Shown: positions 18,839 through 31,441, numbered from the stretch's first letter. The stretch is 64,000 nt of DNA from Escherichia coli (GCF_003334385.1 NZ_QOWN01000018.1), one strand, 5' to 3'. The notes: a model not told the origin generated them from the letters alone. Translations and numbers: made by a program.

Positions 18839-19885
18839 TCAGTTCGATACCTGGGGTATTCGACGACGACGTAGACTGTTCCATGAATAGACTGCGTTGA
18901 ATAACACTACGCCAGCGGTGACGAGAAATACCGCTCTGAAACCGTAGTTCGCTGAAATCGCTGCTCCCATCAATGGTCCGGTAACGTTGCCAATATCACG
19001 AAACGATTGGTTATAGCTGAAGATACGCCCGGCGATCTGGTTGCTCGAGTTGTAAACCAACAGTGTCTGTACGGCGGGGAGTAGTGCACCATCGGCGGCA
19101 CCGAGCAAAAAACGTAAAATCCCAAGTTGCAATGGCGTCTGAACGTAAGACATTGGGATCAACAGCAGTACAGAAAAGATCAGCGCTGTAATCAGGATCT
19201 TTTCGGGTCCGATTCGATCGCCAAGTTTGCCGAGTCGTGGTGCACTTAGCAGAGCCGCCACGCCTGGCACCGAGGCGATCATGCCACTGATAAAGGCGAC
19301 GTTACTGACGTTACCCGCCAGTTCGCGGACATACAGCGTCAGAATGGGGGCAATTGAGCCCGTCGCCACCTGGATGATTAACGTAGTGACAAACAGGCTG
19401 AGTACCAGTTTCGGGTTTTTAAGTGATGTCACCACTTCCCGCATGTGCAGCATCTCTTTTTTGCTGACCGGCTGGAATTTTTCTCTGATGCAAAACAGGG
19501 TGACGAAAAAGCAGAGTATGAGCACACTGGCGGTAATAAAGAATACCGGACGTAAGCCGTAGCTATCGGCGAGCAGGCCGCCAGCCATTGGGCCGAGCAA
19601 CGCACCACTAACGCCGCCTGTGGAGAGCGTACCCAGCGCCCAGCCGCTTTTATTACGCGGTACTTGTGTGGCGATAAGAGCATTAGCGTTGGGGACAAAT
19701 CCGCCAAGTAACCCAAGAAGCGCCCGCAGGATCAAAAACTGCCAGATATTTTGTGCCAGCCCCATCAACACCATCACGATGCCCATGCCGAGGGCAGAGC
19801 GTAATAGCATGAGTTTTCGGCCTTTACGGTCGGCGAGTCCACCCCAAAACGGTGAGGCGATGGCCGAAAATAAAAATGTAATGCT
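18839..19885 (-). pseudogene. mdtG: mdtG 3-prime portion (MFS efflux transporter) cut off from its start by the insertion
   Basis: The frame reads ...[34 protein letters not shown]... to stop at 18839. It continues the 62-codon N-terminal piece at 31260-31441. Upstream of 19885 the frame hits a stop inside foreign DNA. Confidence 0.93.
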
Positions 19886-19907
19886 GATATTTGTTCCCTA
19901 AATACAC
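19864..19907. other. attL-type junction: mdtG arm / shared CTGA (proposed CT core 19884-19885) / element arm GATATTTGTTCCCTAAATACAC
   Basis: The host reading frame is lost within 19881-19887. The same CTGA occurs at the other junction (31260-31263). Confidence 0.75.
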
Positions 19908-20048
19908 CATGAGAACATACCTGTTAATAACAGGACAATATCAGGTGAATGATTATGCAATTCAACGGTGTTTTTCCAAGTATCTAAGCAGTTTTACACA
20001 GATTCTATGCAGTATCGGTATAGTCTCTTTTTAGCATAACTTATTGAT

Positions 20049-20080
20049 ATCTATAAAGAATCTGTGAAGTCTCTTTTCAG
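20049..20080 (+). repeat. left copy of a roughly 32-bp direct repeat ATCTATAAAG-A-ATCTGTGAAG-TCTCTTTTCAG flanking the small recombinase gene
   Basis: Aligns with 21162-21191 (ATCTTTAAAG-T-ATCTGTAAAG-ACTTTTAAG), about 25 of 32 positions, same orientation. Degenerate extra copies lie at about 20022-20037, 21127-21140 and 21229-21254. Confidence 0.7.
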
Positions 20081-20287
20081 GGTAAACTGTATCGTGTTAG
20101 TCGTCCCTCTCTCGACTCCTAGAAAAGTGCTATATACAGGGCTATATAACGATATATAGATAGTTGGTCACATGGTGTAACTATCAAGAAACTTAACGAT
20201 TTCCTACGTGAAAGTTAGAAAGTGATGGTTATAGTTACCCTCCTAAAATCTTCATAGCTCCTTCATAACCAGTCTTAAAAGGACTTC

Positions 20288-20393
20288 CTTATGAGACACT
20301 TTCAACGTAACGGTAGAATGCACCTTCCAAGTGTCTCATAAGCTTGTTTTTGAATTATGAGACAGCTAAACTTATGAGACCAACTTTTGAGAC
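20288..20393 (+). promoter_or_regulatory. cluster of five TTATGAGAC-type boxes, including a perfect 14-bp inverted repeat, directly upstream of the small serine recombinase gene
   Basis: Boxes lie at 20289-20297, 20333-20341 (inverted), 20355-20363, 20372-20380 and 20385-20393 (TTTTGAGAC). CTTATGAGACACTT (20288-20301) is the exact reverse complement of 20329-20342. A possible weak promoter TTGAAT-17-TATGAG overlaps the boxes. Confidence 0.6.
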
Positions 20394-20408
20394 TTCTTAG
20401 GGGGATGT

Positions 20409-20957
20409 ATGGCGGTGATTGGTTATTGCAGGGTATCAACACAAGACCAGACTGTAGACAACCAGAAACTACAGATAGAGAAGGTTCACAAGGTCGATAA
20501 ATGGTTTATTGATGAGGCTGTCTCAGGAGCTACAAAGGCCACCAGCAGAGATGGTTTTAGAGACATGATGAACTATGTAAGGTGTGACGATACGTTAGTT
20601 GTGGTAGCTATTGACCGTTTAGGGCGTAATACCGTTGATGTGCTCTCTAACGTGGAGGCACTACAGACTAAAGGTGTGAGGGTTGTTTCTCTACGTGAAG
20701 GTTTCGACTTATTAACACCAATCGGTAGAGCAATGCTTACTATGATGGCTGGTTTAGCTGACCTTGAAAAAGACCTTATCAGTGAACGTAGAAAGGCTGG
20801 TATTGAACGTGCTAAAGCTGAAGGGGTTCACATGGGGAGACCTGTAAAAGCTTCTTCAGAGACTGTAAAGATGCTTATCTCACAAGGTAAAACGAGGTTG
20901 CAGATTCAGGAAGAGCTAGGAATCTCTAGAGCAACTTATTACAGACTTGCTAAATAA
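20409..20957 (+). CDS. small serine recombinase (resolvase/invertase family) with C-terminal HTH
   Basis: 182 aa. N-terminal IGYCRVSTQDQ catalytic-serine motif, DRLGRN, and C-terminal GRP...GISRATYYRL HTH. AGGGGGA RBS 5 nt upstream. Confidence 0.9.
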   Translation: MAVIGYCRVSTQDQTVDNQKLQIEKVHKVDKWFIDEAVSGATKATSRDGFRDMMNYVRCDDTLVVVAIDRLGRNTVDVLSNVEALQTKGVRVVSLREGFDLLTPIGRAMLTMMAGLADLEKDLISERRKAGIERAKAEGVHMGRPVKASSETVKMLISQGKTRLQIQEELGISRATYYRLAK

Positions 20958-21161
20958 GTTACTGAATAGTTACATGGATGTAGCTGATATTTGGCTTTTT
21001 TGCAAAGGGGGTCACATAGCTGGTGTGACGGGTACTTAGCAGGTATAGACCTGTGATAGATATTTTCGAAGATTCGGGGAAGATGAGATTCAAAGAGGGC
21101 TAGTCATTTTTTATAAAAATTTTCAGAATCTGAAAAGTTACTGTACAGAATATATACAGAC

Positions 21162-21191
21162 ATCTTTAAAGTATCTGTAAAGACTTTTAAG
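21162..21191 (+). repeat. right copy of the direct repeat flanking the small recombinase gene
   Basis: See 20049-20080. Confidence 0.7.
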
Positions 21192-21300
21192 ATAAAAGAT
21201 AGATATCCAGAAAGGATATCCGTTTAGAAAGACTGTTAAGTATCTCTTAAAAGAGAGTAAACCTTGTCAATAGTGATTGCAATAAAAATTTTTATTTCTT

Positions 21301-21963
21301 ATGTCAATTGAGCATATTTTAATCGGGAAGCATCATGGGGGTTCTGATTACTGGAGAACTCCATTTTTGTTATTTAAGAATCTAAACTGTGAATATATTT
21401 TCACGCTGGATGGTGCTGCAACTAAGCACGATACGTTATTACCCCGCTTTACGGATGATATTCACAATCAATCGTGGATTGGCGAAAGGGTGTTCTGTAA
21501 CCCGCCGTACAGCGATATTCCGTCGTTCCTCATAAAAGCGTCTGAGGCAGATTTAGCGGTATTCCTGATACCGTATAGAGCCAACACCAGCTACTGGCTT
21601 AGGCACATTTACAGCAATAACCACTGTCATGAAATCCGTATTCTTCATCGTGCAGTTAAATACCTTCCACCAGCAGGCCATAACGGGCTTACTATTCGTT
21701 CACCGTTTCCAAGTGCAGTCATTGTTTTTAAAAAAGAACCACGCAGGCATGAAATTACGCAGATGATTTGCTGTGCTGATACATTGCTACCGTTAACCAT
21801 CATTAACAGAGGAGGCTTAAGAGGAAGACCCACCATTTACCCACCTGAGACGCTCGACAGCTTCATAAAACTATACAGGCAAGGAAAACCCATTAAGTGC
21901 ATTGCAGATGCTCTCAGAATGCCTCTGAGCACGTCATACAGGATTGCGCAAAGGTTGAGCTAA
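21301..21963 (+). CDS. phage-type DNA N6-adenine methyltransferase (NPPY motif) fused to a resolvase-type C-terminal HTH
   Basis: 220 aa. SDYWRTPFLLF...LDGAA...VFCNPPYS is typical of the phage Dam-like family. The C-terminus GRPTIYPPETLDSFIKLYRQGKPIKCIADALRMPLSTSYRI resembles the DNA-binding tail of resolvases. No obvious SD, so the start is uncertain. Confidence 0.7.
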   Translation: MSIEHILIGKHHGGSDYWRTPFLLFKNLNCEYIFTLDGAATKHDTLLPRFTDDIHNQSWIGERVFCNPPYSDIPSFLIKASEADLAVFLIPYRANTSYWLRHIYSNNHCHEIRILHRAVKYLPPAGHNGLTIRSPFPSAVIVFKKEPRRHEITQMICCADTLLPLTIINRGGLRGRPTIYPPETLDSFIKLYRQGKPIKCIADALRMPLSTSYRIAQRLS

Positions 21964-22067
21964 AATTCTCATAAATATGGTCATTTACAAGACAGGTGAT
22001 TCAGATATTAAGAAGTATCCCTGTGAACAATAAATGACCAATCAGTAATTATTCTGTGAAATAATTG

Positions 22068-22096
22068 TTGCAATTTATAATCACATCTGTTATAGT
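22068..22096 (+). promoter_or_regulatory. sigma70-type promoter TTGCAA-17-TATAGT upstream of the replication gene leader
   Basis: Hexamers at 22068-22073 and 22091-22096 with a 17-nt spacer. Confidence 0.55.
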
Positions 22097-22274
22097 TTCT
22101 ATATGGGCTGATAAAAAAGTTCATGTCTTGAAGTGGTAACACTTGGGGAGGTGTCAGATGGTTGGCGTATAAAACCTCTCATTCATGGTATACCTCAGCG
22201 TTTTAATCATCGTACTGTTTCAGGCATGGACTTCTTTATCAGTCCATCAATCCCCCAGATATTTTAATCACACA

Positions 22275-22304
22275 GGCTAATCGGTTTTATCCGGTTGGCC
22301 TTTT
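22275..22304 (+). terminator. terminator-like hairpin (possible attenuator, or end of a roughly 200-nt leader RNA) 20 nt before the rep start
   Basis: GGCTAATCGG-TTTTAT-CCGGTTGGCC (10-bp stem with two G-U pairs) followed by TTTT. Confidence 0.5.
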
Positions 22305-22325
22305 CACATATGAGGTATTTTATGA

Positions 22326-23294
22326 ATGAAAAAAGAAACTAATGCTTTTATTATGGTAGATAAACGAGTTGCACAATTCCCTAAAACATTAAAGCCAATT
22401 GACCGCTTGGTATATTTCACTATGCTGGATGGTGCTGATTATTACGAATCTAAGTTCGGGAGATATGCACCAAGTATTGACTATTTGATGGTTATGTCTG
22501 GTGCTACACGTAATACAGTTATTGACTCTCTGAAAAGACTTGAGTCACACAGGCTTATTGAGAAGACCAATATCAAAGGGCAGCAAAGTATTTTTAAAGT
22601 ATTCACGTTAGATGAGCGTCCAGAAGTCTTATCAGAACCTACCCTTGATGAGCGTCGTAGAGTCAAATTATCAGGTCAACCAGAATCTGACACTAACCCA
22701 ACCAAAAATTGGTTACCTACCCAACCAGAATTTGGTTACCTACCTAACCAGAAATTGGTTACATGTAATACTGAATATAAAGACAAAAATATAAAAACTA
22801 AAGAAGAAAGACTAAAAGGGAACTTTGAAGAAGAATCTCTTAAGAAGGGAGCTTCGCTCTGTGATTCACATGAATGTGATATTAAAGAAGATGACTTTCT
22901 TTCTTTGGATGAATTAAATGATTTTCTCTCTATGAATGAATCTGACCTTGATAGTGAAGCTACTAAAGAGGTCGTTAAAAAGGAAGATAAAATCTCTGAT
23001 GTGATTGCTAGTAGTGACCATAAAAACACACAGTGCCCCGCCACTGATGATGAGATGGACCCCTTCGATGATGATGAAGAGGATGAAGAGTCAGAACGTG
23101 AAAAAGCCATTAAGAGGGTAGAGAAGAAAAAGAGATTCGAGCTTGCAAGACAAAAGAACAAAGTATCGGGTTTAGACCCATTCGATGACAGTGAAGATGA
23201 TTATTATCTTTCACCGAGAAAGAAACAAACCCAGGATGACAAGAAGCAAAAAATTAAACCGAAGATGTATTTTGCTGGTGGAGGTATGCGCTAA
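22326..23294 (+). CDS. putative replication initiator (N-terminal winged-helix-like domain, iteron-encoding linker, acidic/Lys-rich C-terminus)
   Basis: 322 aa with GAGG RBS. Its architecture parallels lambda O: the origin iterons lie inside the gene. Function is inferred, not recognised by homology. Confidence 0.55.
   Translation: MKKETNAFIMVDKRVAQFPKTLKPIDRLVYFTMLDGADYYESKFGRYAPSIDYLMVMSGATRNTVIDSLKRLESHRLIEKTNIKGQQSIFKVFTLDERPEVLSEPTLDERRRVKLSGQPESDTNPTKNWLPTQPEFGYLPNQKLVTCNTEYKDKNIKTKEERLKGNFEEESLKKGASLCDSHECDIKEDDFLSLDELNDFLSMNESDLDSEATKEVVKKEDKISDVIASSDHKNTQCPATDDEMDPFDDDEEDEESEREKAIKRVEKKKRFELARQKNKVSGLDPFDDSEDDYYLSPRKKQTQDDKKQKIKPKMYFAGGGMR
22678..22810. other. putative origin of replication: half-iteron plus three 23-bp-spaced palindromic iterons AACCA-N5-TGGTT, then an AT-rich tract
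   Basis: AACCAAAAATTGGTT at 22700-22714, AACCAGAATTTGGTT at 22723-22737, AACCAGAAATTGGTT at 22746-22760, and a half-site AACCAGAAT at 22678. The A/T-rich run 22761-22810 follows. Confidence 0.65.
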
Positions 23295-23584
23295 TGAGAG
23301 AATATAACGGTGAAAAACGATACAAAGATTATCTATTAAGGCGCTACAGCATTTCTCGTGAAGGTCATCTTCTGAAAGATACTCATGGGGAGGTTTACCG
23401 GATTCGACCGAAGAAGGAAGGAAAGAATTATTTCTTTTTTGATGGTGTGACAGATTTAAAGATTGACGCTTTGAGGTTTGCAGTGCTGTATCATTATGAT
23501 ATCTGGGATTCGGTCCACCAGCTACGATTAAAAGACGGTGACCCCGGTAATCTGAGGGCCACCAATATCATCACAAAACGTTAG
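23294..23584 (+). CDS. small protein of unknown function (weak NUMOD4/HNH_3-like pattern)
   Basis: 96 aa, ATGA-type overlap with the rep stop. YSISREGHLL...LKDGDPGNLRATNI faintly recalls homing-endonuclease-associated DNA-binding modules. Confidence 0.45.
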   Translation: MREYNGEKRYKDYLLRRYSISREGHLLKDTHGEVYRIRPKKEGKNYFFFDGVTDLKIDALRFAVLYHYDIWDSVHQLRLKDGDPGNLRATNIITKR

Positions 23585-23766
23585 TTTGTTTTACCATCAT
23601 CAATCGTAATTGTGATTTCATATTTGAAAAGCTTAATGCTGAAATTGAATCGTGTACTTTTGGCGATAATCATTTTTAAAAGCTGATACACCAGAAGCAC
23701 CAGAAACACAAAGCAACCTAAGCTTGCGAATCTGTGAGATTCAGCAATTGTTTCAAGAAAGCCCAT
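23581..23766 (-). CDS. 61-aa single-pass membrane protein (toxin-, holin- or exclusion-like candidate)
   Basis: It has its own promoter TTGTCA-17-TATTAT and SD AAGGGGA. Hydrophobic core LGCFVFLVLLVYQLLKMII. It is the only minus-strand gene in the element besides the integrase. Confidence 0.5.
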   Translation of the reverse strand: MGFLETIAESHRFASLGCFVFLVLLVYQLLKMIIAKSTRFNFSIKLFKYEITITIDDGKTN

Positions 23767-23816
23767 TAATTCCCCTTATTTATCAAAGGGAATGACCTGT
23801 ATCAGCCCCTATAACC

Positions 23817-23867
23817 ATAATATCATGTAAATGAGATGTTGACAATATGTTAAATAAATGTTAAGAT
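23817..23867. promoter_or_regulatory. back-to-back divergent sigma70 promoters with overlapping -35 hexamers
   Basis: Plus strand: TTGACA (23839-23844)-17-TAAGAT (23862-23867). Minus strand: TTGTCA (complement of 23840-23845)-17-TATTAT (complement of 23817-23822). Confidence 0.65.
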
Positions 23868-23903
23868 TGTAGTATGAGTAAGAGATTTAAGGAGATTTTT
23901 ACA

Positions 23904-24194
23904 ATGACTCACACAGTTACGCGCCTTTTGCCAGAGGCATTTGAACGACTGGCAGCAATCAAAGCCAAATACCCTGATATGAAGCACACGGCGCTTGTTG
24001 GAGAGCTTTTAAAAGAGTCGGTAGCCCTGACCCCTTTCGATAACGTTAAGGGCGTTGCAGAGGGTTCTAAGGCCATCAGAATCACAACAGGCCAACTGGA
24101 ACTACTCAAAGCGCAGTCCGCAGTAGCAGGTTGCTCAATGATTCAGGTGTTAAGCACTAAGGTTCATCAACTGGCGGATAAATTGGAGGTTTAA
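23904..24194 (+). CDS. putative tandem ribbon-helix-helix DNA-binding protein
   Basis: AAGGAG RBS 9 nt before ATG 23904 (the ORF track start 23874 is less likely). Two beta-alpha-alpha-like segments: HTVTRLLPEAFERLAAIKAKY... and AIRITTGQLELLKAQSAVAG.... Confidence 0.5.
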   Translation: MTHTVTRLLPEAFERLAAIKAKYPDMKHTALVGELLKESVALTPFDNVKGVAEGSKAIRITTGQLELLKAQSAVAGCSMIQVLSTKVHQLADKLEV

Positions 24195-24580
24195 TGTATG
24201 ACTTTTATAAACATCGTGACCATTTGGTAAGATTTGACGGTAGAGTCTGGAAAGACATAACAGAAACCAATAAACCCAAGTTTACCCACCAGCAATTAGC
24301 CTCAAGATTTGATATCTGGACTGAAGCACAAAAAGATAATGGTGATTTCGAGTTTATCAGGGGTTTTGATTATGCTTACGAAGATGACCTTAAAGACGCC
24401 ATTAAATTAATTGAAAATTTTAATGGAAATAATTCTGGTGACAAACACAAAGCCAATGGTAATCGGTATGACAGGGAGTTAATTCTTGATGCCATTTCCA
24501 GAGGTCAATCACAAAGTTATATTTCTGAGAAATACGGCTTATCACGTAGTCAATACTACAAGATTAAAGCGTCTGTGTAA
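24194..24580 (+). CDS. hypothetical protein with resolvase-type C-terminal HTH
   Basis: 128 aa, TAATG overlap with the previous gene. C-terminus ISRGQSQSYISEKYGLSRSQYYKI. Confidence 0.55.
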   Translation: MYDFYKHRDHLVRFDGRVWKDITETNKPKFTHQQLASRFDIWTEAQKDNGDFEFIRGFDYAYEDDLKDAIKLIENFNGNNSGDKHKANGNRYDRELILDAISRGQSQSYISEKYGLSRSQYYKIKASV

Positions 24581-24717
24581 GCCTGTGAGAATGAGTGAGA
24601 CTCAAAGATGAGCTACCCTATTACTAAGGTGTCTCACTCCCTCTGTAACCCGCATGGTTACTGGCCTCAGAATGGCTATTTTGGCAGATTTAAGATGTGT
24701 TTTAGAGGAATTTAAAA

Positions 24718-25041
24718 ATGAACAACTTCCCATTACAAATTTTCGTTGATAACGACACCGCTCTGATGATTCAGGCTTTCACTGATTCCGGTGTATCAAT
24801 TGACTTTGACAGGCTGTTAGAGTTGATGGCTGATAATGCAGAAAACATCTCTGACTTTATTCAGTCGGTGGAGTTTAACGAGCCTCGAATGATGCTACCA
24901 ATTAAAGACAGCAACATGAAAAGATTGGTTATCGAGCAAACGAACAAATACAGCGTTAGCCCTGAAAGATATCTCAAGGCAGCTATAGCAATTTTGTGCG
25001 CTGACAATATTTTGGTGACGGATTCGAAGGTGGTGCATTAA
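24718..25041 (+). CDS. hypothetical protein
   Basis: 107 aa, AGAGGA RBS. No recognisable motif. Confidence 0.5.
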   Translation: MNNFPLQIFVDNDTALMIQAFTDSGVSIDFDRLLELMADNAENISDFIQSVEFNEPRMMLPIKDSNMKRLVIEQTNKYSVSPERYLKAAIAILCADNILVTDSKVVH

Positions 25042-25118
25042 TGGGCTTAATAATTGCTTGGACAGCTTTGGGTTTATTTGTTGGTTGCTGGGTAGGTAAC
25101 ACAGTAAATAAGAATTGA
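25041..25118 (+). CDS. possible 25-aa hydrophobic peptide (MGLIIAWTALGLFVGCWVGNTVNKN), translationally coupled
   Basis: TAATG overlap with the preceding stop. Below the ORF-track size cut-off and found by reading. Confidence 0.3.
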   Translation: MGLIIAWTALGLFVGCWVGNTVNKN

Positions 25119-25143
25119 TGTTGCCAATCTGTTAAAAAGCTGT

Positions 25144-25172
25144 TGACAAATAACCTTAAGCATGACATAATT
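25144..25172 (+). promoter_or_regulatory. sigma70-type promoter TTGACA-17-CATAAT heading the late/structural operon leader
   Basis: Hexamers at 25144-25149 and 25167-25172. Confidence 0.6.
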
Positions 25173-25535
25173 TTAATTATGGGAGAGTAATTCTCTCTTA
25201 TATTTCTTTCAATAATCCGATGGATGGATGGATATTCTGAGTTGGTGAGGTATGTTCTATACCGAACATTCTGAAAGGTGCAATGCTTTTCGCTACATGA
25301 CCTCTTATATAACCTGAGAGGTCATCTCGAAAAGTACTCTTGTTCATTCGTTATTGAATCCTTTAGATGTTTTAATTTCTTCACCTTATGAATAGCCCTT
25401 TATAAGAAATTATCTAGGGCTATTCAGTTTTTAAAAAGCATACTTGGCAAACCGCCTTTTAAGTCTCTTCTAAGTTCGTAGGCTGTCAGGTGTGCTTTTT
25501 AAAAACTGAATATACTTAGAAGAGGAAATGAAATA
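25173..25535 (+). promoter_or_regulatory. roughly 360-nt non-coding, hairpin-dense leader (candidate cis-regulatory RNA or packaging/recognition site)
   Basis: No ORF with an RBS. Hairpins at 25184-25198, 25253-25270, 25298-25326 (9 bp) and 25391-25426 (10 bp). A 20-bp perfect inverted repeat (25422-25441 and 25494-25513) overlaps the last hairpin. Confidence 0.55.
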
Positions 25536-26246
25536 ATGGCAAATGACATTTATATTAGTGGAAGAAAAATTGATAGCTTCGGTGACTGGTCGCCACAGAC
25601 TGAACATCCAGCTATCGTTATTCAGCGTAAAGAACACGATGCGAGAATTGAGCTTGAGCAAGAGCTAAAGATGTCACCAAAGCAAATTACCTTTGTGTCT
25701 CCTGAGCCTCAAGAGATGCCTGATGTATGCAAGAGTGAAGCATTGCTTGAGCTTGAAAAGAAATATTTCCCAGCTTTAAAAGCACAGCGTCTTAGATTAG
25801 ATGACGCTTACAGCAAAGTTACCCTGATGCAATCAGCTATTGAACCGTCAGAATTTGAGATTCAGGATGAATTGTCACAGAAACCATTTGTTTATTACCA
25901 ATATGCAGACAATGATGGTTTTGGTACTTTTCCTGAGAATATCCCAGACGCGATTAGTAGTCTTCCTGATGGATATCGAATTGTGAAGATGGTTAAAGCT
26001 TCAAGGGGTGCTGGTCAATTTATTTATATGACCAATAAGAGCGATGAAGAACTCGCTGAACTTGCTAGACAGAACATCTTGGCATCACGTAACAAGCAGC
26101 TTGATAGTGCTAAGTTGTATCTCTCAAGAGAGCTTCAGGCTATGAAAGAGCTTGTTAGTGAATATGAGTCGCAGAAGAAGATTGCTATGCAAGCTGATAT
26201 TGAGCAGTTAGTGAAGATTTCTCAGAAGTATAGTAAAGCACTTTAA
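25536..26246 (+). CDS. hypothetical protein with coiled-coil C-terminus
   Basis: 236 aa, GAGGAA RBS. No recognisable family. Confidence 0.55.
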   Translation: MANDIYISGRKIDSFGDWSPQTEHPAIVIQRKEHDARIELEQELKMSPKQITFVSPEPQEMPDVCKSEALLELEKKYFPALKAQRLRLDDAYSKVTLMQSAIEPSEFEIQDELSQKPFVYYQYADNDGFGTFPENIPDAISSLPDGYRIVKMVKASRGAGQFIYMTNKSDEELAELARQNILASRNKQLDSAKLYLSRELQAMKELVSEYESQKKIAMQADIEQLVKISQKYSKAL

Positions 26247-26270
26247 TTATGAATTAAGAAGAGGTGATTA

Positions 26271-26480
26271 ATGTTTGAAGAACGTTTAGAGACTATTCGG
26301 TCTGTTTGTGAAAACTTAAAGTTACAAACCAAGCCAGCCTTAAGAATTAAAACCAAACATCAAATTATCACCTCACACAAACCAAAAACACGCAAGATTC
26401 CAAAGTGGTGTATTGACCGTATTCCTTCTGATGCTCAAATCATAGGTGAAACGGAATTACATTATCTTGTCCGACATTAA
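26271..26480 (+). CDS. hypothetical basic protein
   Basis: 69 aa, GAGGTG RBS. Confidence 0.45.
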   Translation: MFEERLETIRSVCENLKLQTKPALRIKTKHQIITSHKPKTRKIPKWCIDRIPSDAQIIGETELHYLVRH

Positions 26481-26503
26481 AAATTGGTTGGGTAAAATCA
26501 ACG

Positions 26504-26544
26504 GGAGAGATTATCGAGTGACATCGGTAGTTTCTCCTTTTTTT
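26504..26544 (+). terminator. imperfect hairpin plus T-run (possible terminator or pause) before the tape-measure gene
   Basis: GGAGAGA...TTTCTCC outer stem followed by T7. Confidence 0.4.
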
Positions 26545-26577
26545 GTATATGAACACTTAAGAGGTGAAAAAATATGA

Positions 26578-28749
26578 ATGGCACAGTTTAAAGTTGATGA
26601 TTTTCTGATTGAGCTAGGTTTTAACTCTCAGAGGGTTTTAAAAGGTCTGGAAAAAGCCGAGAAACAAACGATGCAGGTAGCATCACGAATTGAGAAGCGA
26701 TTGAATAAAGCTTTTAAAGTTAACCCTACGCCTTTAAATGATTCTCTCAAGGTCATGGAAAGAAATGTCGATAAAACTGTTTCCAAGATTGAGCAGCGTC
26801 TTAAAAACACTAAAGCGTTTAAGATTAAAACGGAAATTGAGGATACTTTAAAGCCACTTAAACAACCGAGACAGCCACGAATTAGCGGCAACAGAGCAAT
26901 CACAGCAGCACATAGTGTGAATATGTCTAAGCTTGGTGATATTAATCCGCTGATGGCTAAAATGTTTAAAGCACAGTATTACAGCTTAAGCGGTAAGGCT
27001 GGTAATATTGGAAGTGAAAAGTTTAACGCTGAACTTGCAAAATTAAATCAATCTCTTCGTGAAACGTTGAATAAACTCAGGTCACAGACAAAGACCGCCA
27101 GCATCAGCAAAGTAAATGATTCCTTTAATAATCTTGCAAGCAATGCAATTAAGTTATCTGGTGCATTTTACTCTGTGATGGGTGCTCTTAACGCTTACAA
27201 GGCCATTATGAATGCAGGTCTTAAACGAGATTCCGCACAGAGAGCCGCTAAGTTTGTACTTGGTGATAAAGCATCTGAAGCTGAAACATTTATCAGGGGA
27301 CTGGCTGACAAGACAGGTCTTAATATCTCTGAAGGACTATCAAGCTACGCTAAGTTTGCAGCAGGTGCTCAGGGTTCTATGTCACAGGAACAGACACAGG
27401 AGCTATTTGGTAATGCAACGGCTATGAGCCGTTTAATGGGGCTTTCTAACGATGAACTAAACGGCATTTTGAAAGCTTTTGAGCAGATGGCTTCTAAGGG
27501 CAAGATTCAGGCTGAAGAATTACGTGGGCAGTTAGGTGACCGTATGGCTGGTGCATTTAAGCTATTCGCTGAAGCATTGGGTATGACTGCTACAGAGCTT
27601 GATGCAGCCATGAAAAACGGGAAGGTACTTTCCGCTGATACTCTCCCTAAAGTCGCTAAACAGATGGGCTTGATGATTGATAAAGCGGGTGGCTGGGCTG
27701 AAGTCGCTAAGAGCACCCAGACAGCTTTAGGTAAGTTAGCAAACAACTGGGATGATACGATGGTTAAAATCTTCTCAGGTTCACAGGATGAGTTAAACGG
27801 CTTCTTATCCAGCCTGGGTAGCCTGCTTAGTGAAATGGGGATGAGTTCTTCTATCGCTGGTGATGCTATCGGTGGACTTATCGACATGCTTAAAGCTGGT
27901 GTAGATGATATTCGCGTATTCAATAACACCATTGAAGGCTGGATTTTACAGGTTAAAAAGTTCTATTACAGCCTTGATGACACTAAACGAAAACTACTTG
28001 ATGAAGTCGGTGATGGTTTTATCAATTTTGTCAAAGGTCTTGCTATAGCGTTATCTGCAAAGACGCTATTCAGTGCCACTACAGGGGTGATGAACCTGAC
28101 AAGAGCAATCACAACGTTAGGTACAAGAGCTAATCAGGTGGCTGGTCAGGTAACTACTGGTAAAGGTGGTGGAAAACTGAAAGGTGTAGCTGGTGGTGTA
28201 GGTAGTGCTCTTGCAATTGGTTATGCTGATGACGGTTATGAAACAGCGTTAGCATTAGCTTCAATGATTCCACAAATCAGAGGTGTCACCCTTGGTTTAT
28301 ATGCATTGAAGAAAGCACTGGATTTTATGAATCAGGAAGTAGTCAAAAACGCTAATATGCATCCATCTGGGGTAGGTGTGGGTAGTGACTTTAATCCTGT
28401 GTATTCTGGTGACCCTAATAAACCGAATATGATTAACGAAGGATGGAGTAAAATTTTTAATTCAATGGGTGAATTGTTTAACAATGCCACAATGAATATT
28501 GCAAGATTCAATCATCCAGAATTAAACAACATTAAGCAAGATTCAGCATTAACGAGTGCAGATATTCAGAGTCTGAGGGATGAAATTAGTGCTTTGAGTA
28601 AACGTATTCAGGAGCCTGTGAAAGTTTCACTTGGTGGTGAAGTTGCCATTAAACCAGATGAAACCAGCTTTATGACCTTTAGCAGTAATATCTACGACCA
28701 ATATGCAGAAGCTACGCTATTAAGTTCATCATTCCCAGAAGATGATTGA
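26578..28749 (+). CDS. phage tail tape-measure protein
   Basis: 723 aa with a coiled-coil N-terminus. The central tape-measure signature is GKIQAEELRGQLGDRMAGAFKLFAEALGMTATELDAAMKNGKVLSADTLPKVAKQMG. Gly-rich hydrophobic segments lie near the C-terminus. Confidence 0.8.
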   Translation: MAQFKVDDFLIELGFNSQRVLKGLEKAEKQTMQVASRIEKRLNKAFKVNPTPLNDSLKVMERNVDKTVSKIEQRLKNTKAFKIKTEIEDTLKPLKQPRQPRISGNRAITAAHSVNMSKLGDINPLMAKMFKAQYYSLSGKAGNIGSEKFNAELAKLNQSLRETLNKLRSQTKTASISKVNDSFNNLASNAIKLSGAFYSVMGALNAYKAIMNAGLKRDSAQRAAKFVLGDKASEAETFIRGLADKTGLNISEGLSSYAKFAAGAQGSMSQEQTQELFGNATAMSRLMGLSNDELNGILKAFEQMASKGKIQAEELRGQLGDRMAGAFKLFAEALGMTATELDAAMKNGKVLSADTLPKVAKQMGLMIDKAGGWAEVAKSTQTALGKLANNWDDTMVKIFSGSQDELNGFLSSLGSLLSEMGMSSSIAGDAIGGLIDMLKAGVDDIRVFNNTIEGWILQVKKFYYSLDDTKRKLLDEVGDGFINFVKGLAIALSAKTLFSATTGVMNLTRAITTLGTRANQVAGQVTTGKGGGKLKGVAGGVGSALAIGYADDGYETALALASMIPQIRGVTLGLYALKKALDFMNQEVVKNANMHPSGVGVGSDFNPVYSGDPNKPNMINEGWSKIFNSMGELFNNATMNIARFNHPELNNIKQDSALTSADIQSLRDEISALSKRIQEPVKVSLGGEVAIKPDETSFMTFSSNIYDQYAEATLLSSSFPEDD

Positions 28750-28905
28750 TTTAACGGTGTTCTACGTGAATAAAGCAAAGTTAATACCCGCACTAAAAAT
28801 TATTTTTTACGTAGCACACGCTTAACAGAGAAAATACTTATATATCAAAGGCTTGGTTAAAAATGATTAAAATACACTAAGCCTTTGAAATCAAAGGAGA
28901 ATTTA

Positions 28906-29694
28906 ATGATTTACTCTAATCAACTTCGTTACAGTGGCAAAGATGGTGTTTACTTCCATCTACAAGGCCAACCAGATAATTTCTTGTCACTATCAGCAAC
29001 AGAGAACATGGAATTTGACAGCCCTATGATGGTGACCACTCAAAATATGCAATCAGGGCAGACTGTAACAGATAATGTAATGCGTTCACCCAGAACTATT
29101 TCAATCAGTGGTGTGGTTGTAGTTGGTGAATCCGGTAGTATCCTCATCTCAAGAGATAATAAGCTGGTGGAAAACTTCATCGACACTCTTGAAAGCTGGC
29201 GTGACCAGAAGCAAATTATTTCGGTCATCTGTAAAGACGGAATTAAAATTGATGATTCTATTATTACGAGTTTTAAAGCCTCTAAAGATGTTGGTATTTC
29301 AAATGGTCTAAGAGTCCAGCTAACTTTTCAGGAAATTAACTTTAAAGCAATTGTAGGGCAAACTGATGTTTCAGCAGCTACTGGCAAAGCTGCCACCACG
29401 AATGACGGTGGTGTGACCAGTAAGAAGAATGCAGGTAACGTGACCACTGAACGCAATAACGCGCCTATGCTATCGTGCAAAGAGTTAATGAATATTAGCG
29501 ATGTATCCGGTTACGTTCCGGCTATCAGAAATGATATTCTCGATGCTCAGATTAAGTGCAATAAAGCTTGGAAGCTGGACTATTCAGACTTAACAGAAGC
29601 TGAAAAAACCAACGTCACCAATGCTAATAGTAACGCTGGTCGAGTAGCTTCAAAGCTTAAAAAGTACTCAGTGAATCCTAATAAGAGATACTAA
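28906..29694 (+). CDS. putative distal-tail (Dit-like) / baseplate-hub protein
   Basis: AAGGAG RBS before ATG 28906 (the track start 28885 is TTG). The N-terminal pattern [36 protein letters not shown] resembles Dit-like tail proteins, and it sits directly after the tape-measure gene. Confidence 0.45.
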
Positions 29695-31220
29695 ATCTCT
29701 ACTACATCAACATCTATTAAACCCCTCTCAGTGACTTCAGAAAGCGACTGTATAGCCTCTGTAACGTTGTCTGAGGGGTTTTCTGTTATAGGTAGGTCAA
29801 TTACCTTGCCGTTGTGAAAAGTCACTTTACAGCGACGTTTAGCGGCATCTATAACTATTTCTTTGAGTACGCCCTTGATAAGTAGCTGTGTCTCTATCAT
29901 CCCTTCCTTTGTTGTCCTGTCAATATCTTTGAGGCTTCCAGTTGTGATGGCCTTTATCCGCTGTGTTTCCTCTTCGATATCATGATTGAGTTTTGATAGC
30001 GCATTCTTCATATCACGTAATTTCTCTGTGATAATTGTCATGTCATCGAGTTCAATAGCGAGTTCTGCCATTTTTGAGATTTTACGCTGCAAATCTTCAC
30101 GCTGTAATTTAAGGCTATCAATAGTGTCAGTATTTTCAGTTTCAAAACGGTCGCATAATGCGAGCATGTAGAGAATAGTTGCATCCGTTTGCTTACGACT
30201 GATAGCCTTTGCACTACACCTGTTAGCTGAACGATTAGGGCATCTGTACATCCCAAAACGTTTTAAGGCATATCCACCAAGAACAATAGTAGCCCCACAC
30301 TCAGAACATTTGATGATACCCCTGAACAAGTTGACTGATAGCGGATTACTTGATACAGAAGCCCTACCATATTGCCCTGTGTTCAGTTGCTGTACTCGAT
30401 AGAATAGTGACTCACTGATTATTGCGGGGTAGTAACCCTGAACTTCTTCACGTCCAGCAGGTGTGAAACATCCAATCACAGCACGATTTCTGAGTAGTTT
30501 CTTTACAGCAGTATCAGACCACCCCTTTTGTTTGGGTGTGTATTGATTCAATGACAAGTGGCCTTCATCGTTTAAAGTTCTGGTGATAGCCCAAAAGCTT
30601 AAACCCTGTAATCTCAGGTCAAATGCTCGTTTAACAACTTCCACTTTATCGGGGATGATAGTGAATGTTCGACGGTCATCATTCAGCCTTAACCATGCAG
30701 GACAACGCCTAGATACCTTGATACCTTCGGAGATGAGTTCTTTTTTACGGTTCCATGCAGCTTGGACACGCTCAGACTTCCTCAGACTTTCCTCATGCGC
30801 CCGCTGCATTATCAGAATGCTTTTAATCAGGGATAACGGGTCTTTTAAACTTTCTCGTGTGTAATGTTCACCATCGGACAGGGTGACTACATCTACACCA
30901 GCCCTTAAGATACGGCGTAATAGCTCAGAAGCAATATCAATATCCTGACGTGACAGACGGTCTAAACTCTCGATTAGTAGCGTATCACCAGCTTTAACAA
31001 GCCCTTTCTCGATAGCGGTTAGAAAGTCACCTAGACCACCTTTCAGGTGCTTACCACTAAAAGCACTTTTCCCCAAATCTTTAAAGCTCAAGGATGAATC
31101 CAAGTAAAACTCAGGGTTCTTATCAAGCCAGTCAGTAACCAGCTTAGATTGTCTGCGTACAGAGTCCCCTTTTAGTTGTCGTTCACTTGAAAATCTGATG
31201 TAGCTGATTGCCCGTCTCAT
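29691..31220 (-). CDS. large serine recombinase (integrase)
   Basis: About 509 aa from ATG 31220 (the track begins at TTG 31226). [11 protein letters not shown] catalytic motif, DRLSRQ, a recombinase domain, a zinc-ribbon CSECG...[11 protein letters not shown] and a long coiled-coil. It lies 40 bp from the junction. Confidence 0.92.
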
Positions 31221-31239
31221 ATTCAATACCTAAAATGAT

Positions 31240-31281
31240 GTGTTTAGGAACCCATTATACTGAAGACAATACCGGACCACA
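31240..31281. other. attR-type junction: element arm GTGTTTAGGAACCCATTATA / shared CTGA (proposed CT core 31260-31261) / mdtG arm
   Basis: The mdtG frame (…[10 protein letters not shown]) leaves host sequence here and terminates after 3 foreign codons (MGS stop at 31244). Confidence 0.75.
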
Positions 31282-31441
31282 TATTCAGGGCGGAGTGACC
31301 GGTAACGCCAAGCTGCTCAACGTAGAGGGGTAAGAAGGGCATTACCAGACTGAAGGCGGCACCGGTAAGAAAACAGCCTAGCCAGGCGACGATCAGGTTT
31401 CGTTTCCAGTTTATAGGGGTGTCATTTTCACAGGGTGACAT
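31260..31441 (-). pseudogene. mdtG: mdtG 5-prime portion (first ~62 codons)
   Basis: [62 protein letters not shown] matches the MdtG N-terminus. Confidence 0.93.

Follow-up and report, generated by a model that had tools for sequence, protein, structure and literature searches.

Positions 25,536–29,694 of a 64,000-nucleotide stretch of Escherichia coli DNA (GCF_003334385.1, NZ_QOWN01000018.1; the window) probably encode the tail module of an 11.4-kb integrative satellite, whose helpers would be Felix O1-like virulent myophages and which would build chimeric tails with them. We give this reading a probability of about 0.55. The island is probably a parasite of Felix O1-type phages that builds hybrid tails, because its genes for a tape measure protein (TMP) and a tube initiator match those of these phages. 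From the same matches, the helper group would be the Ounavirinae, with Felixounavirus, for example Bas63, as the closest. The features of the island and its flanks are as follows.

18839–19887, minus: 3' part of mdtG, a disrupted host gene for an MFS efflux pump (translation, K-12 annotation)
19888–31263, no strand: whole integrative island, 11,376 bp, ~39% GC, inside mdtG (GC profile, junction sequences)
20409–20957, plus: small serine recombinase, 182 aa (Pfam Resolvase, E=3.8e-41), within a variable cargo slot
21160–21260, no strand: intergenic segment with homology to a promoter/5'-UTR region of Ounavirinae; contains a repeat of the GGATATCC type
21301–21963, plus: phage-type Dam DNA adenine methyltransferase with a C-terminal HTH (Pfam Dam, E=1.2e-14; HTH_7; PADLOC orphan methyltransferase)
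22326–23294, plus: HTH replication-initiator-like protein, 322 aa (weak matches to PHROG replication initiation and O-like families, E=5e-8 to 1e-6)
23294–25041, plus: small ORFs of 96, 106, 128, and 107 aa without assigned function; weak C-terminal HTH in the 128-aa ORF
25143–25535, plus: promoter and leader; strong sigma-70-like TTGACA-17-CATAAT with TG, then a structured leader of ~370 nt (promoter/terminator scan)
25536–26246, plus: island-specific protein, 236 aa; helical hairpins/coiled coil and a small alpha/beta unit; always the first cassette gene
26271–26480, plus: basic protein, 69 aa, in every island inspected; dN/dS 0.21
26503–26545, plus: intrinsic-terminator-like hairpin, 15-bp stem (26503–26538) and U7, separating the 69-aa gene from the TMP gene
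26578–28749, plus: TMP, 723 aa, homologue of Felixounavirus gp17 (Pfam TMP_3, TIGR02675, PHROG 4036, PDB 9ndy_F)
28906–29694, plus: tube initiator, 262 aa, homologue of Felixounavirus gp18 (Pfam Dit_like, PF21821; PDB 9ndy_A; DNA mosaic)
29691–31226, minus: large serine recombinase, 511 aa, the island integrase (Pfam Resolvase, Recombinase, Zn_ribbon_recom; PHROG 95 integrase, E=6e-81)
31260–31441, minus: 5' part of mdtG, disrupted (translation, junction sequence, K-12 annotation)

Anatomy of the island and its tail cassette

The island differs in composition from the host background, which lies mostly between 0.45 and 0.55 GC in a profile of the window. The sequence CTGA is duplicated at the two junctions (19884–19887 and 31260–31263), and the predicted attP reads GTGTTTAGGAACCCATTATA-CTGA-TATTTGTTCCCTAAATACAC, with imperfect inverted arms. 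Annotated K-12 supplies the empty mdtG site for comparison, and an island in E. coli strain A1 has ends identical to those of the window island. The predicted attP junctions found no match in IMG/VR or JGI metagenome contigs, a search that had almost no power in controls.

The anatomy is satellite-like, comprising an integrase, att sites, an initiator-like protein with iterons, and an incomplete set of virion genes. The three 23-bp iterons, detected by a tandem-repeat scan, lie inside the initiator-like gene (22696–22764) and form a putative origin of replication. Two slots are variable. The cargo slot (20172–20997) is non-homologous in island L004, which carries another recombinase there on the opposite strand, and the second slot spans 24198–25058. 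The intergenic segment at 21160–21260 is 87% identical to Bas63 79780–79840 over 62 nt, with a core of 35/36. This segment of ~60–100 bp matches Ounavirinae only (253 of 50,697 phage records) and is also kept in islands L004 and L023.

As the earlier note had claimed, the element lacks genes for a tail tube, head, or terminase: the 12 main ORFs have no match to head, terminase, portal, tube, or sheath families in Pfam, PHROGs, and NCBIfam. Nothing in the island is recognisable as a packaging function, a pac/cos site, or a gene for capsid remodelling, and six ORFs have no recognisable function in profile searches including Pfam and PHROGs. PADLOC reports only the orphan methyltransferase, using a 2023 release of PADLOC-DB that predates the tail-blocking defence papers of 2024–2026.

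The tail cassette consists of four ORFs of 236, 69, 723, and 262 aa (25536–26246, 26271–26480, 26578–28749, and 28885/28906–29694, all on the plus strand), exactly as first described. The convergent 4-nt overlap of the last gene with the integrase gene is also confirmed (29691 versus 29694). The term operon is loose for this cassette, given terminator-like hairpins at 25178–25202 and 26503–26538. The first of these, followed by a U-run, lies in the leader downstream of the cassette promoter. The leader also contains a 37-nt inverted repeat (25413–25449/25484–25520) adjoining the ribosome-binding site, and its predicted RNA fold has a z-score of −8.2. Bas63 has a terminator comparable to the second hairpin, between its tube and chaperone genes. 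Judged by these signals, expression of the cassette looks tightly gated.

No tail assembly chaperone is found among the cassette products. The 236-aa and 69-aa proteins match neither Bas63 gp15/gp16 nor chaperone families in HMM, BLASTP, and fold searches, and the 69-aa protein has no similarity to gp16. The 236-aa protein is possibly a TMP chaperone or an assembly factor.

Tape measure protein and tube initiator

Profile and structure searches, proposed in the earlier note, match the two larger cassette proteins to Bas63 gp17 and gp18. The 723-aa protein is a tape measure protein, as had been recognised from its sequence signature. It matches Pfam TMP_3 (PF20155; E=1.4e-21, 77.5 bits, cut-off 41), TIGR02675 (2.6e-14, 53.3 bits, cut-off 21.35), and PHROG 4036 (tail length tape measure; E=6e-88). 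The homology to Bas63 gp017 (PDB 9ndy_F; E=3.3e-68) is full-length, with 33% identity over residues 1–479. The parts common to island and phage are the N-terminal ~50 residues, a central domain, and a C-terminal motif, LLSSSFPED in the island and LLSSSYPEE in the phage, which is conserved in six aligned sequences. In the cryo-EM structure of Bas63, the last 25 TMP residues sit on the puncturing protein and the hub (PMC12609058). The island TMP evolves with a dN/dS of 0.35, and no TMP more than 60% identical to it occurs in the records of 50,697 deposited phage genomes. A change of tail length had been suggested as one effect of the cassette. A large change is unlikely, since the protein has 723 residues compared with 742 in Bas63, and the range in the island family is 679–726.

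The 262-aa protein had been described as Dit-like. It does match Pfam Dit_like (E=3.3e-19, 69.7 bits, cut-off 24.2), and is more exactly a myophage tube initiator, with Bas63 gp018 as structural counterpart (PDB 9ndy_A; E=1.8e-102). Translation from an ATG at 28906, preceded by an AAGGAG ribosome-binding site, gives 262 aa; a TTG at 28885 would give 269 aa. The protein is 66% identical to its Bas63 counterpart, residues 93–178 are identical, and its N-domain has matches in Ounavirinae only. In Bas63, the tube initiator forms a tube-like hexamer and threads a C-terminal extension through the baseplate (PMC12609058). That extension, ~100 residues in the phage, is not conserved in the island protein. 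The last ~80 residues are island-specific, with no more than 44% identity to any phage and a DNA identity of ~40–50%; they are similar in length to those of the phage, and the sole motif kept is the terminal SVNPNK. The dN/dS of the gene is 0.16.

The order of the two genes, TMP followed by tube initiator, is the same in island and phage, and both proteins retain the surfaces that dock into the Felix O1-like hub and tube. At the DNA level, the tube-initiator gene is a mosaic: it contains tracts 93–100% identical to phage DNA, and their location within the gene differs between islands. A previous study reported that Ounavirinae phages have recombined, over 542–544 bp, with loci of E. coli lacking a detected prophage, strain A1 included (PMC11069274). 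Together, these tracts and that report suggest ongoing exchange of DNA between the islands and Ounavirinae phages.

Distribution of the family and competing explanations

The cassette is present in 480 of 5,426 complete E. coli genomes, at 651 places, with up to four per genome; none of the 651 places is on a plasmid. It also occurs in Salmonella, E. albertii, E. marmotae, Citrobacter, and Shigella. Islands of the same architecture, ~11.1–11.7 kb in size, reside at mdtG, wrbA, yecE, and yciI/tonB. Nine islands from E. coli, Salmonella, and metagenomes were fully inspected (the window, L004, L005, L012, L015, L023, L028, L031, and L032). They share the ~11-kb architecture at no fewer than four att sites and have differing recombinases. 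The four genes are kept as a unit down to ~50% TMP identity. Across island genes, dN/dS is 0.16–0.42, and the genes are under purifying selection. No published description of this enterobacterial island family was found in the literature.

The cassette could instead be the stump of a full tail operon, left beside the integrase by a decayed temperate phage. Such operons are the normal setting of TMP and hub genes, and IS elements do interrupt some cassette copies. The relatives speak against this reading, which we consider very improbable. Because the cassette holds together as a unit within islands of ~11 kb, it is not a prophage stump, and the observation named in the earlier note as a refutation, such stumps alone in close relatives, is not borne out. 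The architecture is uniform in 9/9 inspected islands, with no head, tube, or sheath genes at their flanks; the dN/dS values, the lack of close TMPs in phage records, and the strictly virulent lifestyle of the closest phages, the Ounavirinae, point the same way. Even less probable is that the two proteins serve a mobile element outside phage tails, for instance in a contractile or secretion device of the host, or as sensors that set off another function of the island. The six ORFs without recognisable function leave some room for it, but the island has no sheath, tube, baseplate wedge, or effector genes by Pfam and PHROGs, and near-identity to Felixounavirus gp18, with which recombination has recurred, links the proteins to the assembly line of that phage.

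A stronger competitor, though still an unlikely one, is an island devoted to defence. The copies of TMP and tube initiator would then be dominant-negative decoys that occupy the hubs of Felix O1-type baseplates, yield tail-less or non-infectious progeny, and protect the clonal population, and the island would never be packaged. This overlaps with the satellite reading, because PLEs, the satellites of Vibrio cholerae, do both. The tube initiator would suit a decoy, as its tube-like domain is kept but the ~80-residue extension, which threads the baseplate in Bas63, is replaced; such an extension could misfit the helper baseplate. The lack of packaging and capsid genes by Pfam and PHROGs, and of a recognised chaperone gene, likewise weighs against the satellite reading, as does the absence of island-like records from the 50,697 deposited phage genomes. 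The seemingly tight gating of the cassette would also fit defence. Blocking tail assembly is a known defence strategy, exemplified by Tai (PMC11364771), a virion-assembly inhibitor (PMC10884400), and Rta of PLE11 (PMC12987554). These systems resemble the island in being borne on mobile elements and in targeting the tail assembly of an invading phage; the characterised ones, Tai and Rta, are inhibitory proteins and not homologues of tail parts (Rta has 80 aa), whereas the island carries full structural homologues. A decoy, however, would need neither a complete TMP in which every conserved segment is under purifying selection nor a conserved four-gene cassette. The initiator, the iterons, and the strikingly uniform island size suggest amplification and a packaging constraint, and PADLOC offers no defence match besides the orphan methyltransferase.

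Proposed mechanism and comparison with known satellites

As a satellite, the island would excise and replicate upon helper infection, and the cassette would be transcribed past the terminator-like hairpins. The island TMP would dock in the helper baseplate hub via its conserved C-terminal motif. The tube initiator, with a tube-like domain nearly identical to that of the helper, would form a hexamer nucleating polymerisation of the helper tube and sheath. The predicted outcome is a chimeric tail with helper parts around a satellite core, by analogy with the Vibrio PLEs, for which such tails have been demonstrated experimentally. Such tails would equip the particles of the satellite itself, and competition for hubs would leave fewer good helper tails. 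Selectivity or interference may come from the island-specific parts, namely the middle of the TMP, the last ~80 residues of the tube initiator, and the 236-aa and 69-aa proteins. The 11.4-kb genome could be packaged in small capsids or as ~8-mer concatemers in an 87-kb head. The idea that an element's own TMP and hub protein act on helper tail assembly was put forward in the earlier note. Its core fits all the evidence, with a candidate helper group now assigned and docking surfaces kept; of the rest, a large effect on tail length is unlikely. The claim of an undescribed satellite strategy is outdated, as Vibrio PLEs follow this strategy with TAC, TMP, and BhuB (PMC12987554).

PLEs build chimeric tails with parts of ICP1 (PMC12987554, Nature 2026). 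Their TAC, TMP, and BhuB are 20, 20, and 41% identical to those of ICP1; PLE virions contain the PLE TMP and BhuB, and deletion of tmp cuts transduction by 96–99.9% (PMC12987554). Like PLEs, the island is small, sits in the chromosome, and encodes a large serine recombinase, together with an initiator-like protein and a putative origin; its presumed partner is a virulent myophage too. Both also encode part of a tail pathway, built around a TMP of their own and a hub-side protein. In both, the TMP has diverged from the helper far more than the hub-side protein (20% versus 41% identity in PLE11, 33% versus 66% in the island). PLEs reside in Vibrio, have ICP1 as helper, and are ~18 kb in size, whereas the island, of 11.4 kb, resides in Enterobacteriaceae, with Ounavirinae as the likely helper. 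The island also has no recognisable TAC, capsid-remodelling, lysis, or nuclease genes, and its functional steps are predicted where those of PLEs are experimental. With an E. coli host and Ounavirinae as the closest phages, it is a PLE analogue and not a member.

The phage counterpart is the gp15–gp18 module of Felixounavirus Bas63, in which a pair of tail assembly chaperones is followed by gp17 as the TMP and gp18 as the tube initiator (PDB 9ndy, PMC12609058). The likeness extends to the gene order, the TMP N terminus, central domain, and C-terminal motif, initiator residues 93–178, and the DNA tracts of 93–100% identity. The island cassette differs in having no tube, sheath, hub, wedge, fibre, head, or terminase genes alongside, in two upstream genes unrelated to gp15/gp16, in a TMP only ~33% identical, and in the replaced C-terminal extension of the tube initiator. 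Intergenic hairpins also part the island genes, whereas the phage counterparts abut.

TMP genes have also been reported in EPIPs and some cfPICIs, which are likewise satellites or putative satellites. EPIPs have been isolated as free particles and induce a helper that is a prophage, and cfPICIs carry their own capsid and packaging genes; in the literature found, a helper-matched tube initiator is not reported for either. The island was rejected as a cfPICI, as its ORFs have no match to capsid, portal, protease, connector, or small-terminase genes in Pfam and PHROGs. It was also rejected as a P4-like satellite: its integrase is a serine recombinase, and its ORFs have no match in these databases to a tyrosine integrase, alpha primase, or sid/psu/delta. 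PICMIs (PMC10803314) are similarly minimal integrative satellites that depend on virulent phages and have no capsid-remodelling genes, but they reside in Vibrionaceae and have no tail genes.

Satellite-built hybrid tails have so far been demonstrated for cholera-phage satellites alone. What is new here is the candidate partner phage group, the Felix O1-like Ounavirinae, for the two tail proteins of the cassette.

Borders and content of the island

The island is an integrative element of 11,376 bp (19888-31263), with ends set by comparison with the intact mdtG of K-12. It interrupts mdtG, a neighbour of lpxL, and CTGA is present at both junctions. The GC content of the block is about 39%, against mostly 0.45-0.55 in its surroundings. 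The predicted attP, GTGTTTAGGAACCCATTATACTGATATTTGTTCCC, has inverted, imperfect arms. The ends are identical in a related island that occupies this site in E. coli strain A1. Since the insertion splits mdtG, the strain should be without the MdtG efflux pump. Related islands of the wrbA type, unlike those of the mdtG type, bring a substitute 5' end (MSVKARILVLYY...) that leaves wrbA open. The sole tRNA gene in the window, a tRNA-Ser (GGA) at 2140-2227 on the minus strand, lies well away from the island, whose attachment site is elsewhere.

Features of the island in window coordinates
18839-19887 and 31260-31441: parts of mdtG on either side of the insertion
20172-20997 and 24198-25058: variable cargo slots, from comparison with the related island L004
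20176-20195 / 20955-20974: 20-nt inverted repeat flanking a small serine recombinase (182 aa) in the first slot
22696-22764: three 23-bp iterons in tandem, ACCCAACCAAAAATTGGTTACCT, with a palindrome inside each, located in the 322-aa HTH initiator-like gene
25143-25540: strong sigma-70 promoter (near-consensus, 11/12 matches, with TG) and leader, upstream of the cassette
25536-26246: 236-aa gene, first of the cassette
26271-26480: 69-aa gene, second of the cassette
26503-26545: strong intrinsic-terminator-like hairpin (15-bp stem, U7) between the 69-aa and TMP genes
26578-28749: tape measure protein (TMP) gene, 723 aa, third of the cassette
28906-29694: tube-initiator gene, last of the cassette, 262 aa when started at the ATG that an AAGGAG ribosome-binding site precedes (269 aa when started at a TTG further upstream)
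29691-31226, minus strand: large serine recombinase (511 aa) with Resolvase, Recombinase and Zn_ribbon_recom domains; the integrase

From left to right, the island is composed of the small serine recombinase in its variable slot, a phage-type Dam methyltransferase, the HTH initiator-like gene, four small unknown ORFs, the cassette, and the integrase. Placement of the iterons inside the island's own initiator gene resembles the origin arrangement of lambda O. Judged from these sequence features, the island is integrative and probably replicative too. In other islands the cargo consists of AP2 or HNH genes, or of another recombinase on the opposite strand. The idea that the small recombinase acts as an invertible switch was dropped because the slot in L004 is replaced by non-homologous DNA rather than inverted. 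A PADLOC search of the island for known defence systems returned an orphan methyltransferase only, and an Rfam scan gave nothing credible. A 61-aa ORF on the minus strand (23581-23766) contains a hydrophobic stretch that, by eye, is probably membrane-spanning. The same ORF is predicted as a gene in a copy of the island from a metagenome (L024, 3903-4088), and it may encode a small membrane toxin or abortive-infection peptide.

The tail cassette and its counterparts in Felix O1-like phages

ORF calls agree with the four cassette genes and the 4-nt overlap between the end of the tube-initiator gene and the minus-strand integrase gene that had been read from the sequence. The 723-aa protein is a tape measure, as proposed, and matches Pfam TMP_3 (E=1.4e-21, above the curated cut-off), TIGR02675 (2.6e-14) and PHROG 4036 (6e-88). 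The 262-aa protein matches Pfam Dit_like (E=3.3e-19, above the cut-off). These family matches are not due to chance. In protein family searches, no island ORF matched head, portal, terminase, tube or sheath families, and the earlier note was therefore right to describe a tail-only module in an element lacking the rest of a virion.

Island DNA matches 216 phage records, the great majority of them, by organism name, from Felix O1-like phages that infect Escherichia and Salmonella; among the matches listed, the best all lie within the 262-aa gene. The counterpart of this gene is gene 18 of the felixounavirus Bas63 (Escherichia phage JohannRWettstein), located directly after the TMP gene 17. In the cryo-EM structure, Bas63 gp18 is the tube initiator, a hexamer with the fold of a tube protein that serves as adaptor between the threefold hub and the sixfold tube, and its C-terminal extension of ~100 aa runs through the baseplate (PMC12609058). 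The last 25 residues of the Bas63 TMP, gp17, touch the puncturing protein and the hub (PMC12609058). When searched against PDB sequences, the island tube initiator matches 9ndy_A (gp018) with E=1.8e-102, and residues 93-178 are identical. The label 'Dit-like' thus stands at the Pfam level but not functionally, where the match to 9ndy_A identifies the protein, on sequence grounds, as a myophage tube initiator. The island TMP matches 9ndy_F (gp017) with E=3.3e-68. The parts shared with gp017 are the first ~50 residues, a central domain and the extreme C-terminus, which reads LLSSSFPED in the island and LLSSSYPEE in gp017. All five island TMPs in the alignment retain this motif.

Overall, the TMP is 33% and the tube initiator 66% identical to the Bas63 protein. 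A search of 50,697 phage records with the tube-like domain gave matches in Ounavirinae alone, the closest (83-87%) being from Felixounavirus. In no deposited phage does TMP identity to the island exceed 60%. The record GU169904.1 (Staphylococcus phage SA1) holds a Felix O1-like TMP at 75000-77210 with 100% query coverage, and Ounavirinae-specific segments match it too; contamination of this record with DNA of a Felix O1-like phage is probable.

The other two cassette proteins have no such counterparts. HMM, BLASTP and fold searches recognised no tail assembly chaperone, nor any relation of the 236-aa and 69-aa proteins to the Bas63 chaperones gp15 and gp16. Searches with the 236-aa protein gave no family in Pfam, NCBIfam, PHROG or PADLOC and no phage homologue. 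At 90% identity its relatives fall into 3,107 clusters, drawn from E. coli, Salmonella and E. marmotae, with a diverged branch also in Citrobacter and Shigella; at 50% identity there are only about six full-length clusters among 1.84 billion representatives. The protein is an island-specific invention. Its predicted fold is a coiled coil, and the name 'transposase' that it bears in hundreds of NCBI records looks like a widespread mislabelling. The tube initiator is under-named, mostly as just 'phage baseplate protein' or 'hypothetical protein'.

The leader of the cassette, ~370 nt long, has exceptional predicted structure (z=-8.2). It includes an immediate hairpin with a U-run (25178-25202), and a 37-nt inverted repeat adjoins the ribosome-binding site of the 236-aa gene. 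This layout of promoter and leader suggests control by attenuation or antitermination. A terminator similar to that between the 69-aa and TMP genes is located between the tube and chaperone genes in Bas63. The cassette intergenic regions and the Bas63 structural module share no late-promoter motif beyond random 10-mers.

Distribution of the family and exchange with phages

Cassette DNA is present in 480 of 5,426 complete E. coli genomes (~9%, about 1 in 11), at 651 places, all chromosomal, with up to 4 per genome; none was found on PLSDB plasmids. The inspected copies lie at mdtG, the 5' end of wrbA, yecE, and between yciI and tonB. Salmonella enterica contributes one copy, at wrbA. A scan of genome contigs with TMP peptide patterns yielded nothing but E. 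albertii, as the patterns were too strict.

Every inspected copy follows the same plan of ~11 kb: a variable left part, the 236-aa, ~69-aa, TMP and tube-initiator genes, and a convergent serine recombinase. None of these relatives shows the cassette as the leftover of a complete tail operon, the pattern that the earlier note had named as telling against its proposal. Island size stays within ~11.1-11.7 kb despite differing cargo, att sites and hosts (the window island and L004, L005, L023, L028, L031 and L032), and the four-gene order holds even at ~50% TMP identity. Comparison of the window island with L004 yields dN/dS values of 0.16 (tube initiator), 0.21 (69-aa gene), 0.23 (236-aa gene) and 0.35 (TMP). 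The uniform size of ~11.4 kb could, speculatively, hint at a packaging constraint, eight copies amounting to 91 kb against a helper genome of 87.1 kb, or about the content of one Felixounavirus head (87 kb); neither a packaging signal nor a gene for capsid remodelling was recognised in the island. The predicted attP of the mdtG and wrbA types is absent from IMG/VR, in a search without power (no integrated wrbA-type junction occurs there either), and the mdtG-type attP is absent from JGI metagenome contigs, likewise without power (one integrated mdtG-type junction as control). Island-sized Logan and ENA contigs were ruled out as circles, being assembly breaks within the TMP gene or integrated copies.

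Alignment of the islands reveals that the tube-initiator gene is a mosaic relative to Bas63 DNA. In the window gene, alignment columns 271-510 are 93-100% identical to Bas63 and columns 1-270 are 53-83% identical; the genes of islands L005 and L015 display the opposite pattern. The last ~250 nt are 40-50% identical to Bas63 in all islands compared, and the C-terminal ~100 aa of the protein share at most 44% identity with any phage. Recombination with phages therefore renews the tube-like domain, while the extension remains island-specific. TMP segments are also swapped among islands.

An in-silico study reported recombination signals of 542-544 bp between Ounavirinae phages (vB_EcoM_DE7, VSe11 and SP116) and E. 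coli chromosomal loci, strain A1 included, and PHASTER detected no prophage in the donor strains of vB_EcoM_DE7 (PMC11069274). The locus of these signals is probably the island tube-initiator gene; the islands were not recognised as such in that study. The intergenic region 21160-21260 contains a further segment of 60-100 bp with a 35/36 core match to a promoter/5'-UTR region of Bas63 and with GGATATCC repeats. Its phage matches are to Ounavirinae only (253 records), and apart from a 1-nt indel it is conserved in L004 and L023. Such a segment may be a regulatory site common to islands and phages, or no more than a scar of recombination.

Proposed working and relation to known satellites

Sequence comparison shows that the island carries helper-matched copies of two tail-initiation core proteins, plus two conserved proteins of its own. 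Each functional step that follows is our inference from what is known of the Bas63 structure and of tail assembly in general. The island TMP would seat in the helper hub via its conserved C-terminus, and the island tube initiator would nucleate the helper tube and sheath, giving tails of helper parts around a satellite core. The earlier note had also suggested altered tail length. The TMP has 723 aa in the window, 679-726 aa in the family and 742 aa in Bas63, from which a small shortening at most, of 0-2 tube rings, is predicted; with lengths this close, tail length is probably not the point.

We put the probability that the island is a satellite with such chimeric tails at roughly 0.55. This reading overlaps with one in which the island proteins serve defence only, as poison subunits of helper tails, which we consider distinctly less probable. 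That the island is a prophage remnant is improbable in view of the uniform plan at several sites, the gene order kept at ~50% TMP identity, the dN/dS values of the cassette genes, and the lack of a deposited phage with a close TMP. Some other use of the two tail proteins seems slightly less probable still. For the satellite reading in its widest form, we hold tentatively, at somewhat short of even odds, that virulent Felix O1-like phages have in these islands, which occur in E. coli as well as in Salmonella, Citrobacter and Shigella, a widespread and so far undescribed family of satellites. The satellites would spread in particles with helper-part tails around their own TMP and tube initiator, and would be a second, independently evolved case of the chimeric-tail strategy of the Vibrio cholerae PLEs.

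PLEs, satellites of phage ICP1, encode TAC, TMP and BhuB with 20, 20 and 41% identity to those of ICP1; TMP and BhuB in PLE virions are the satellite's own, to the exclusion of the ICP1 versions, and the tails are 10 nm shorter (PMC12987554). Deletion of tmp in PLE reduces transduction by 96-99.9%, and PLE11 also has Rta, a blocker of ICP1's own TMP (PMC12987554). The island has the same signature of a strongly diverged TMP and a hub-side protein near that of the helper. It is likened to PLEs in its proposed working, and is set apart from them by host, helper and a smaller gene set. None of the classes cfPICI, PICI, P4-like element or PICMI applies to it. TMP genes have been published for PLEs, PLE-like elements, some cfPICIs and EPIPs, so the earlier statement that such a strategy was undescribed among satellites no longer holds. 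Full-text searches found no literature on this enterobacterial island family, or on any satellite tied to Felix O1-like phages, Felixounavirus or Ounavirinae, and a paper on small serine recombinases as defence markers mentions none of tape measure, baseplate, Felix, Dam and mdtG.

If the satellite reading is true, the building of chimeric tails is not confined to the cholera PLEs but is a strategy on which satellites of virulent myophages have converged. E. coli K-12 and Bas63, with baseplate, TMP tip and tube initiator resolved by cryo-EM (PDB 9ndy), offer a tractable model, in which the questions raised by PLEs of why a satellite needs its own tape measure and by what means this is selectively incorporated are open to testing. 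Felix O1-like phages have been proposed, at least in part of the literature, for biocontrol and therapy of Salmonella and E. coli. If the island takes over or spoils the tails of such phages, it would count as a resistance determinant of practical relevance, carried by about 1 in 11 complete E. coli genomes. It could also be a reason why Felix O1-type phages for biocontrol and therapy fail on some strains and not on others.
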